DNA of 64,000 nt from Escherichia coli (GCF_046105845.1 NZ_CP151004.1); one strand, 5' to 3'. Positions 7,772 through 9,166 are shown, counted from the stretch's first letter. Numbers and translations: made by a program. The notes: generated by a model not told the origin, from the letters alone.

Positions 7772-9166
7772 TCAGAAGAAGTATTTAAAGCGAACGCGTG
7801 CCCCGTAACGGTCATCAGTATCATCACCGTGTTTTTTATCACCGTCGCTATCCAGAATGGAGTAATACGTCCCGAGGTAAATATTAAAGTTCTCCATATC
7901 CATCACATTAGCGAACTGATAAGACGCATGAATGGTGTGAATGGTGTACGTCCCTTCATCATCAATCCAGCAGTCGTTATCACAAACTACACCGCTGAAT
8001 TCATCAATCTTATTGTGCGCGTAGATATAACCCAGCTCGAAACGTTTCCACAGCGCGTTAATCCCGGCAGTGAAATCTTTCTCATTATTAGCATCTAAAT
8101 AGGCGGTATTAAGATTAACCACGACACCATTTTCCGGATCCGTTTTCAGGCCATTCCAGGTCATGCTCATACCATAGCCGGTACGATCGGACTGATCGAC
8201 AAAATTACCCTTGCTATCGGTATAACCATAAGCATTATTTACCACGTTCGCTTCCATCGCTGCGGAAACGGTGAATTCTTCTGTCGGCGACCAGGCAATT
8301 ACCGGACGCAGATAAGCAACATTTTTCTGCTGCTCCATATCGCGTCCATGATAATTACCATCATTATATAAAGATGTTCCGTCTTCAAGTAACGTGTTTA
8401 ATTCAAAATACCAGTTATCAAGTTGTTTGCTGACGAGGAAATTACCGCCAGCGTTAGAGCGCCCGCGGCCCTCTTTCATCATATAGATATAACCGCTGCC
8501 ATCGTCATAAAGATCGTTCGCAGTATTACCGGAATGTTCAACAAAGGTATCCTGATTCAGCGGGAACATATCGTAGGCTTCAAAACGGCCTACTTTGACC
8601 TTCCAGTCGTTTTCTTTGCCAAAGAAGAATACCGCATCATCGATATTTACTGAACCGTGCATGTCCCCCAGCGGTTGTGCGGAGAACCCGGCGAAATAGC
8701 CATTATCCAGTTTTCGCATACCATCAAAACCTAACAGAATACGACCATTGAGATTCCACTGTTCATTAGTGAGATCGCTATTCACATCAGCGTTGGTCAT
8801 TGCCAGCAGGCCATGATTACTTTCCGCATCCATATTAAATTCTACGTCGCCGTAGATTTTTAAATCGCCATAACCTGAAAGCAAAAGATTAGGTGAGGTG
8901 GAATTTTTCTTTGCAGATTCCGCCGTTGCCTGTCCATTTACCGGCGTATTGCCCTGGGCAGCCTTAATTTCGCGGATCTCAGCGGCTTGTTGTGTCTGCA
9001 GCTGTTTAACCTGGCTCTCTGCTTTTGCTGCCCGCATTTCTGCAGCTTCCAGGCGTTCTTCCAGCAATGCCATGCGTTGTTCCAGCGTTAAATGCTGTGT
9101 TTTTGCCATTCCGGTACTACATGCCAATAATAAACCGATGGCTAAAGATAATGTCGATTTTTTCAT
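7772..9166 (-). CDS. carbohydrate-selective outer-membrane porin (LamB/ScrY-like) with N-terminal coiled-coil extension
   Basis: 464 aa; signal peptide MKKSTLSLAIGLLLACSTGMA; heptad-like coiled coil LEQRMALLEERLEAAEMRAAKAESQVKQLQ; aromatic/Gly-rich beta-barrel-like body ending in ...RFKYFF (C-terminal Phe); SD-like agggaacg upstream of ATG. Confidence 0.7.
   Translation of the reverse strand: MKKSTLSLAIGLLLACSTGMAKTQHLTLEQRMALLEERLEAAEMRAAKAESQVKQLQTQQAAEIREIKAAQGNTPVNGQATAESAKKNSTSPNLLLSGYGDLKIYGDVEFNMDAESNHGLLAMTNADVNSDLTNEQWNLNGRILLGFDGMRKLDNGYFAGFSAQPLGDMHGSVNIDDAVFFFGKENDWKVKVGRFEAYDMFPLNQDTFVEHSGNTANDLYDDGSGYIYMMKEGRGRSNAGGNFLVSKQLDNWYFELNTLLEDGTSLYNDGNYHGRDMEQQKNVAYLRPVIAWSPTEEFTVSAAMEANVVNNAYGYTDSKGNFVDQSDRTGYGMSMTWNGLKTDPENGVVVNLNTAYLDANNEKDFTAGINALWKRFELGYIYAHNKIDEFSGVVCDNDCWIDDEGTYTIHTIHASYQFANVMDMENFNIYLGTYYSILDSDGDKKHGDDTDDRYGARVRFKYFF

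Follow-up and report, generated by a model that had tools for sequence, protein, structure and literature searches.

Escherichia coli K-12 carries rhaM and frvA next to each other, and many other strains of the species have a porin gene between them. What kind of channel does this gene encode, does it serve the neighbouring sugar pathways, and was it gained by its carriers or lost from K-12? We addressed these questions in a stretch of 64,000 nucleotides of E. coli DNA (GCF_046105845.1, NZ_CP151004.1; the window, hereafter), where a first-pass annotation made from the sequence alone had noticed an extra gene for a 464-residue outer-membrane sugar porin. The gene is an uninterrupted open reading frame (ORF) of 464 codons on the minus strand, running from an ATG start to the stop codon TGA at 7772-7774 (coding sequence 7772-9166). 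A chance ORF is ruled out by its full-length match to a Pfam family and by a ratio of nonsynonymous to synonymous substitution rates (dN/dS) of 0.05-0.10 against other E. coli alleles. It is flanked by rhaM (7417-7731, plus strand) on one side and by frvA (plus strand, true start at 9643) on the other. Since it faces rhaM tail to tail and is transcribed away from frvA, it lies outside both the rha and the frv operons. We found that the gene is of an already known and annotated kind: it encodes a RafY-family porin, is chromosomal and orphan, and occurs commonly in E. coli. Altogether, we consider it likely that this glycoporin forms a wide oligosaccharide channel, is probably catabolite-controlled, and has long resided in the rha/frv region, K-12-like lineages having lost it.

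Family assignment and predicted fold

The porin matches Pfam family PF16966 (Porin_8, "Porin-like glycoporin RafY") from residue 104 to residue 464 and along the entire model (positions 1-372 of 372; E=5.6e-154, 513 bits), and the same family is matched by all 49 relatives in our alignment. On sequence grounds, the protein is a RafY-family outer-membrane porin (PF16966, TCDB 1.B.15) and not a homologue of LamB or ScrY. The first-pass annotation had proposed a LamB/ScrY-like barrel and had itself named a lack of LamB-family similarity in the barrel region as evidence to the contrary. This lack is what we found: PF02264, the family of the LamB/ScrY barrel, gave no match at E<=10 in the window porin and none in any of the 49 relatives, so the barrel assignment fails. 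In addition, no NCBIfam family model matches the window porin (best E=0.15), and phmmer against all PDB sequences found no porin, returning only chance matches to dehydroquinase (E about 0.2).

The porin whose gene closes the plasmid rafR-rafA-rafB-rafD operon of E. coli shares 79% identity and 87% positives with the window porin over 450 residues. Among the sequences sampled, the window gene is the nearest chromosomal relative of the plasmid RafY clade (77.6%), the others reaching at most 72%. A protein of BL21(DE3) that RefSeq names "carbohydrate porin" (WP_000749926.1) is 99% identical to it, and the O157:H7 copy of the same gene has been annotated as rafY2 (PMC4809568). The PF16966/RafY family is small, with 234 representatives at 50% clustering among 1.84 billion proteins. 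The full-length cluster of this porin in the protein database holds 3990 member sequences, and shortened variants form the clusters P0057 (342 aa) and P0027 (367 aa). A TCDB tree sets family 1.B.15 nearest to the sugar porin family 1.B.3 (PMC4827864).

The fold was predicted with AlphaFold on the 49-sequence alignment, and a single-sequence model (predicted local distance difference test, pLDDT, of 35) was discarded. The alignment-based model (mean pLDDT 81) begins with a signal peptide; a helix (residues 28-70) and a disordered linker (71-97) lead on to 16 long strands, not the 18 of LamB and ScrY, located between residues 100 and 463. These strands form a predicted 16-stranded beta-barrel (residues 100-464; 7775-8869, minus strand) that closes with the motif RFKYFF. 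Sixteen strands have also been predicted for TCDB family 1.B.15 (PMC4827864). A 46-residue loop between strands 5 and 6 (residues 195-240; 8447-8584, minus strand) corresponds in its position in the model to L3, the constriction loop of classical porins. An unusual number of family-conserved residues fall within it, with D206, Y228 and R236 invariant and E196, R234 and G235 nearly so, and in the alignment it is bordered by G193 and G241. Its place in the model suggests that it may constrict the channel.

When the model was compared with solved porins, the structure-comparison value was highest for OprP (23.7), followed by Omp32 (23.0), Omp-Pst1 (22.8), PorB, OmpT and OmpU (22.6 each), DcaP (22.3), VhChiP (22.0) and OprB (19.9), and it was 18.0 for ScrY and for maltoporin. 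The model is structurally nearer to OprP, Omp32, OmpU, PorB, DcaP and VhChiP than to ScrY or LamB, and neither of the latter two appears among its 50 best Foldseek matches. The 16-stranded trimeric porins OprP, Omp32, OmpU/OmpT, PorB, VhChiP and OprB, and also DcaP of Acinetobacter baumannii, share with the window porin the 16 strands and a long loop after strand 5. However, sequence identity to them is 8-14%, the porin matches none of their Pfam families, and their substrates are other ones. In DcaP, too, a coiled coil at the N-terminus accompanies a barrel of 16 strands. For the gene studied here, practical value lies mostly in correct labelling, as a member of the RafY family with a predicted 16-stranded barrel and not as a LamB/ScrY homologue.

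The first-pass annotation had also described a signal peptide, a coiled-coil extension at the N-terminus and a final Phe, and all three are borne out by the translation and, for the helix, by the model. The signal peptide (residues 1-21, MKKSTLSLAIGLLLACSTGMA; 9104-9166, minus strand) has two Lys residues, a hydrophobic core and a G-M-A cleavage motif and is followed by KTQ, with signal peptidase I predicted to cut before K22. Its c-region and the following KT are kept in orthologues as ...NTGFA+KT. The sequence LLLAC resembles a lipobox, and we considered a lipoprotein signal but rejected it because Cys16 is not conserved, the orthologues having LLLVANTGFA+KT.

The periplasmic helical extension spans residues 27-70 (8957-9088, minus strand). 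AlphaFold predicts a single helix from residue 28 to residue 70 (block-mean pLDDT about 75-88), and six unbroken heptads run through residues 28-67, with L28, L35, A42, A49, L56 and I63 in the a positions and M32, L39, A46, V53, Q60 and I67 in the d positions. The likeness to the extension of ScrY that had been proposed holds at the level of the family. Pfam Sugarporin_N (PF11471), the ScrY-type extension, reaches E<=0.001 in 7 of the 49 relatives and E<=0.1 in 18 of them, that is, in nearly all relatives that bear an extension, but its match to the window porin itself is weak (E=0.06, 14.1 bits, residues 27-54). Most of the distant family members have no extension, and their barrel begins right after the signal peptide. 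A low-confidence linker (residues 71-97; 8876-8956, minus strand; pLDDT <50), variable in sequence among orthologues, leads from the helix to the barrel. Judged from the Pfam matches and the model, the porin looks like a RafY-type barrel joined to a ScrY-like coiled coil.

Distribution of the gene and history of the locus

At least 80% of the porin gene is present in 2557 of the 5426 complete E. coli genomes, and the synteny comparison that had been suggested for these strains placed the gene with its flanks at this same locus in 2542. Carriers include BL21(DE3), O157:H7, ST131 and Seattle 1946, while K-12 and an O111:H11 strain are non-carriers. The gene is a normal, widespread member of the E. 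coli accessory genome that K-12 lacks. As the first-pass annotation had stated, no gene lies between rhaM and frvA of K-12, and the spacer that separates them measures only 300 bp. Homology between the window and K-12 runs at 95% identity through 7000-7732, ends at 7732, restarts at 9508 and continues to 10200 at 92%, with no match in between. The segment absent from K-12 (7733-9507) thus measures 1775 bp here against an unrelated 164 bp there.

Neither deletion scars nor repeats were found at the K-12 junctions, and the junctions of the segment contain no mobility genes, repeats or integrase. The 164-bp filler of K-12 has no relative in the window or at the other loci except in the porin-less O111:H11 strain, with 86% identity (K-12 locus positions 3434-3597 against O111:H11 3317-3492), a divergence well beyond that of the genes on either side. 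This may point to a porin-less allele that is old or has a mixed origin.

Two other layouts were seen within the species. E. coli HS30-1 (NZ_CP029492.1, locus positions 1788-2577) has an IS1A next to a 75-bp remnant of the 3' end of the porin gene; the frv operon and yiiG are gone, and fdhD comes directly after IS1. This remnant is an independent loss of the porin gene. The B2-type strain Seattle 1946 (locus positions 5473-8675) keeps the porin gene (457 aa) and misses the whole frvABXR operon, and a truncated DUF3829 (yiiG-like) pseudogene and fdhD stand directly after the porin gene. The same pattern, with 91-92% coverage, occurs in several other E. coli genomes.

Outside E. coli, orthologues with 74-85% identity converge on rhaM as its direct neighbour in Citrobacter, C. 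rodentium, Kluyvera and Klebsiella sp. B345, and in Pseudocitrobacter three unrelated genes separate the orthologue from rhaM. DNA homology with Citrobacter extends without a break from the porin gene across the spacer and on into rhaM. Enterobacter has frvRXBA divergent from the porin gene, as in the window. Because orthologues hold this locus in five other genera, the locus is, on comparative grounds, old, and K-12 has most probably lost the gene, rather than other strains having gained it. The word "extra" used by the first-pass annotation is correct in relation to K-12, but the gene is better read as one lost in K-12.

In some relatives the porin gene is joined to catabolic genes. In Klebsiella sp. 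B345 the order is rafR, rafA (a GH36 alpha-galactosidase), rafB (a LacY-type permease) and the porin gene, and in Enterobacter the porin gene is followed by rafR, rafA and rafB. In K. grimontii the porin gene precedes genes for a LacI regulator, a major facilitator superfamily (MFS) transporter and a beta-helix protein, and in Buttiauxella it comes after those for an ATP-binding cassette (ABC) transporter, GH13 and GH130. As these gene orders suggest, PF16966 porins serve assorted oligosaccharide loci, with raf genes recurrent at the rha/frv locus. Linkage to raf or other oligosaccharide catabolic genes is typical of the RafY family, yet it is not part of the Pfam or TCDB definitions. Klebsiella sp. 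B345 and Enterobacter show such linkage at their orthologous loci, and none was found here: the window contains no raf genes, and the neighbours of the porin gene are rhaM and frvA.

Compared with BL21, the dN/dS of the porin gene is 0.10; it is 0.05 when a B2 strain is the comparison and 0.04-0.06 with other genera, so that purifying selection on the gene is strong. Among E. coli alleles, dS values go up to 0.23. The base-composition check that had been proposed showed a guanine-plus-cytosine (GC) content of 44.7% in the porin gene, and of 46% at third codon positions (GC3), against about 55% and about 62% in the flanking genes. Across 7733-9507 the GC content is 37-47%, compared with about 55% in the neighbouring genes. 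The lower GC is the only feature that suggests a foreign origin.

Related porin genes also occur on plasmids (186 records, 160 of them conjugative). On pRHB27-C22_5 (CP057400.1, a conjugative IncI-gamma/K1 plasmid; positions 2621-8584) we observed rhaM and rhaD beside a porin allele of the chromosomal type, which is 99.1% identical to the window gene. This porin-rhaM-rhaD segment comes directly after an MFS transporter gene and a raf-type GH32 gene, and five other plasmids are similar (OQ534115-OQ534119). From its gene order, the layout looks like a recombination between plasmid rafY and the chromosomal paralogue that brought chromosomal rha genes onto the plasmid.

Sequences upstream and downstream of the gene

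The spacer between the porin gene and frvA is 476 bp long and AT-rich (37-40% GC). It contains a CRP-like 16-mer, TGTTATATTCCTCACG (9328-9343, minus strand), that agrees with the consensus at 8 of 10 positions and lies 177 bp 5' of the ATG. The pattern TGTTA-N6-(C)TCACG is kept in Escherichia, Citrobacter, Kluyvera, Pseudocitrobacter, Klebsiella and Enterobacter. Across the window, the CRP consensus occurs 18 times against 27 expected, with no enrichment, and the site is proposed because of its conservation across genera, not because of a single match. It is absent from the plasmid rafD-rafY spacer. A promoter is predicted at 9281-9309 (minus strand), with TTTACT as -35 element (9309-9304), a 17-bp spacer and TACTAT as -10 element (9286-9281). 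Across the six genera, TTTAC is invariant and TAnnnT conserved, and no gaps occur between them and the CRP-like site. The CRP-like site is 18 bp from TTTAC, and its centre is 26 bp from the -35 element. The predicted start site is at about 9274, with a leader of about 108 nt, and the CRP-like site would then be centred at -61.5, the classic class I position. From the conservation of these motifs, the porin gene is probably controlled by CRP. A second candidate promoter, in E. coli only, lies at 9258-9229 (minus strand). The ribosome-binding site AGGGAA (9175-9180, minus strand), 8 nt before the ATG, is kept as CAAGGAAAG in other genera.

Downstream, the convergent stops of rhaM and the porin gene are 40 bp apart, and the gap folds into a hairpin (7731-7774; stem 7738-7747/7755-7764). 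The predicted folding energy of 7728-7775 on the minus strand is -28.1 kcal/mol (z = -7.7 against shuffled sequences). A terminator scan reported no canonical terminator between the two genes, because the hairpin has no U-run on either strand. The hairpin may nonetheless act as a terminator or mark a 3' end. No RNA family was found by the Rfam search within or close to the porin gene.

Proposed function and alternative readings

The plasmid-borne RafY (pRSD2 type) is the known system closest to the window porin. Both proteins have 464 residues, share 79% identity over the mature protein and match PF16966 over its full length, and both consist of a signal peptide, a coiled-coil extension and a barrel ending in ...FKYFF, so that a similar wide-channel behaviour may be expected by analogy. 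They differ in that the window gene is chromosomal, is not attached to rafA, rafB or rafD, and has an upstream region with a CRP-like site that has no counterpart in the plasmid rafD-rafY spacer. Ulmke et al. are said to have found in 1997 that RafY complements lamB and scrY mutants. That maltose, sucrose and raffinose are taken up by RafY is cited in PMC4809568 and PMC12987596, and the title of a study cited in PMC4827864 describes RafY as a general diffusion pore, not a specific porin, without a sugar-binding site. A second related system is GlyP of Klebsiella pneumoniae, a RafY-family porin behind a LacI-type repressor that, once de-repressed, alone improves the fitness of porin-deficient cells (bioRxiv 10.64898/2026.03.29.715108). 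Like the window porin, GlyP is a chromosomal accessory porin of the same Pfam family; it is repressed or conditional in expression and has a large channel able to replace the major porins, as would also be expected of the window porin. In contrast, GlyP shares its operon with permease and hydrolase genes and has a dedicated repressor, GlyR, whereas the E. coli gene is solitary and has no regulator gene beside it.

In the mechanism that we propose, the precursor would be exported by the Sec pathway and cleaved after Ala21, and the C-terminal ...YFF signal would direct insertion into the outer membrane. There, 16 strands would close into a barrel and the protein would probably assemble as a trimer, the conserved loop 195-240 folding inward into the channel and the ScrY-like coiled coil (residues 27-70) hanging below the barrel in the periplasm. 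By analogy with plasmid RafY, the channel would be wide and non-saturable, not a LamB-type porin with a binding site, and would let di- to oligosaccharides (for example raffinose, stachyose, sucrose and maltodextrins) enter faster. Because its own promoter carries a CRP-like site at about -61.5, the gene would probably be on when glucose is absent. As for its history, the gene is joined to rafR-rafA-rafB in some genera, and E. coli has the porin alone; it would be a long-standing member of the rha/frv region of Enterobacteriaceae that about half of the E. coli lineages retain under purifying selection and that K-12-like lineages have lost.

Several observations weigh against this account. Considered by itself, the CRP-like match does not rise above chance. 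The gene could be silent in laboratory conditions, as the AT-rich upstream region (37-40% GC) is compatible with silencing by H-NS. The 21% of residues that differ from plasmid RafY may give the channel other properties, and raffinose is not usable through this locus alone, as the window holds no raf catabolic genes. The lower GC of the gene would also fit an ancient horizontal origin. Finally, the porin-less allele may itself be old, as the 164-bp filler of K-12 and its counterpart in O111 share only 86% identity, which blurs the order of gain and loss within E. coli.

A sugar-specific porin of the ScrY/LamB family, with 18 strands, a 'greasy slide' of aromatic residues and a site at which sugar binding saturates, seems most improbable to us. 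ScrY and LamB (PF02264, TCDB 1.B.3) are likewise oligosaccharide channels of the outer membrane, the periplasmic coiled coil of ScrY (PF11471) is similar to the RafY-family extension, and both the RefSeq name and the place of 1.B.15 next to 1.B.3 in the TCDB tree (PMC4827864) point in this direction. However, the barrels share no sequence similarity, as neither PF02264 nor the phmmer search linked the porin or, for PF02264, its relatives to that family; the model has 16 strands; and the title cited for RafY speaks of a general diffusion pore. It is also very unlikely that the porin is dedicated to, and co-regulated with, its neighbours, for rhamnose or rhamnose-containing oligosaccharides (rhaBADM) or for the substrate of the frv phosphotransferase system; the first-pass annotation had taken the position beside the two operons to suggest a dedicated glycoporin. 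Adjacency to rhaM is preserved in five genera and adjacency to frvA in Enterobacter, and such persistent linkage can reflect a shared function. The orientation of the gene speaks against such a dedication, though, as do the roughly half of E. coli genomes that have rha and frv without the porin gene, the B2 strains that have the porin gene without frv, and the three genes that separate it from rhaM in Pseudocitrobacter. Moreover, rhamnose is a monosaccharide that passes general porins, and the co-oriented catabolic genes to which relatives are joined are raf (alpha-galactoside) or other oligosaccharide genes.

With regard to origin, the composition of the gene (GC and GC3), its variable presence among E. 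coli strains and its conjugative plasmid relatives could all be explained by a small island recently inserted in the lineage of this strain, instead of an ancestral gene lost from K-12. We consider such a recent insertion unlikely, given junctions free of mobility genes, repeats and integrase, the same position in five other genera with DNA homology continuing into rhaM in Citrobacter, allelic divergence (dS up to 0.23) that implies long residence, and remnants that show active loss. Genes for outer-membrane proteins are, in general, often lower in GC than their surroundings. The gene might also be a cryptic or decaying, unexpressed relic of a lost chromosomal raf operon. Its separation from rafRAB in E. 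coli, its repeated loss, the AT-rich upstream region and the shortened database variants P0057 and P0027 would agree with this idea, but the intact ORF, the low dN/dS within E. coli, the conserved promoter-like motifs and ribosome-binding site, and the full-length cluster of 3990 sequences make it improbable. We therefore retain the reading of an old, orphan RafY-type channel.

If glucose limitation leads to expression of this RafY-type porin, an extra wide oligosaccharide channel would be available to about half of E. coli strains, including BL21, O157:H7 and B2 strains such as ST131. Its expression could bear on the use of raffinose-family sugars from soy and other plants, and possibly on the permeability of porin-deficient resistant strains. 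An effect on permeability upon porin loss has recently been reported for GlyP in K. pneumoniae (bioRxiv 10.64898/2026.03.29.715108). A broader proposal, which we put forward as tentative and rather doubtful, is that the gene encodes a CRP-activated 'reserve' porin with a large channel that alters both the scavenging of dietary oligosaccharides in the gut and the permeability to large antibiotics when OmpF/OmpC are lost, and that this locus was the source of plasmid rafY, with chromosomal and plasmid copies still recombining. The last part is suggested because an IncK-type plasmid carries the chromosomal allele with rhaM and rhaD beside raf-type genes.

Some minor features of the surrounding region were also recorded. 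The mechanically called frvA ORF (9514-10089; 191 aa from a GTG) is too long, the start annotated in K-12 and BL21 being the ATG at 9643 (MAALTASC..., 148 aa). The rhaA-rhaD spacer (6501-6582) measures about 82 bp in the window; K-12 has 266 bp there and BL21(DE3) 174 bp, and the number of repetitive extragenic elements may be the cause of this difference. A fucO-like lactaldehyde reductase gene is found between rhaD and rhaM in some E. coli (O111:H11, locus positions 1856-3004) and in Citrobacter, Kluyvera and Klebsiella; in the window (7407-7417) and in K-12 these two genes are only 9 bp apart, without a fucO-like gene. The Rfam landmarks of the region are a SECIS element at the start of the gene for the alpha subunit of formate dehydrogenase-O, the small RNAs ES222, CsrC and Spot 42, and the 5S and partial 23S rRNA, located at 16747-16805, 44573-44680, 51458-51711, 52739-52857 and 62112-64000.

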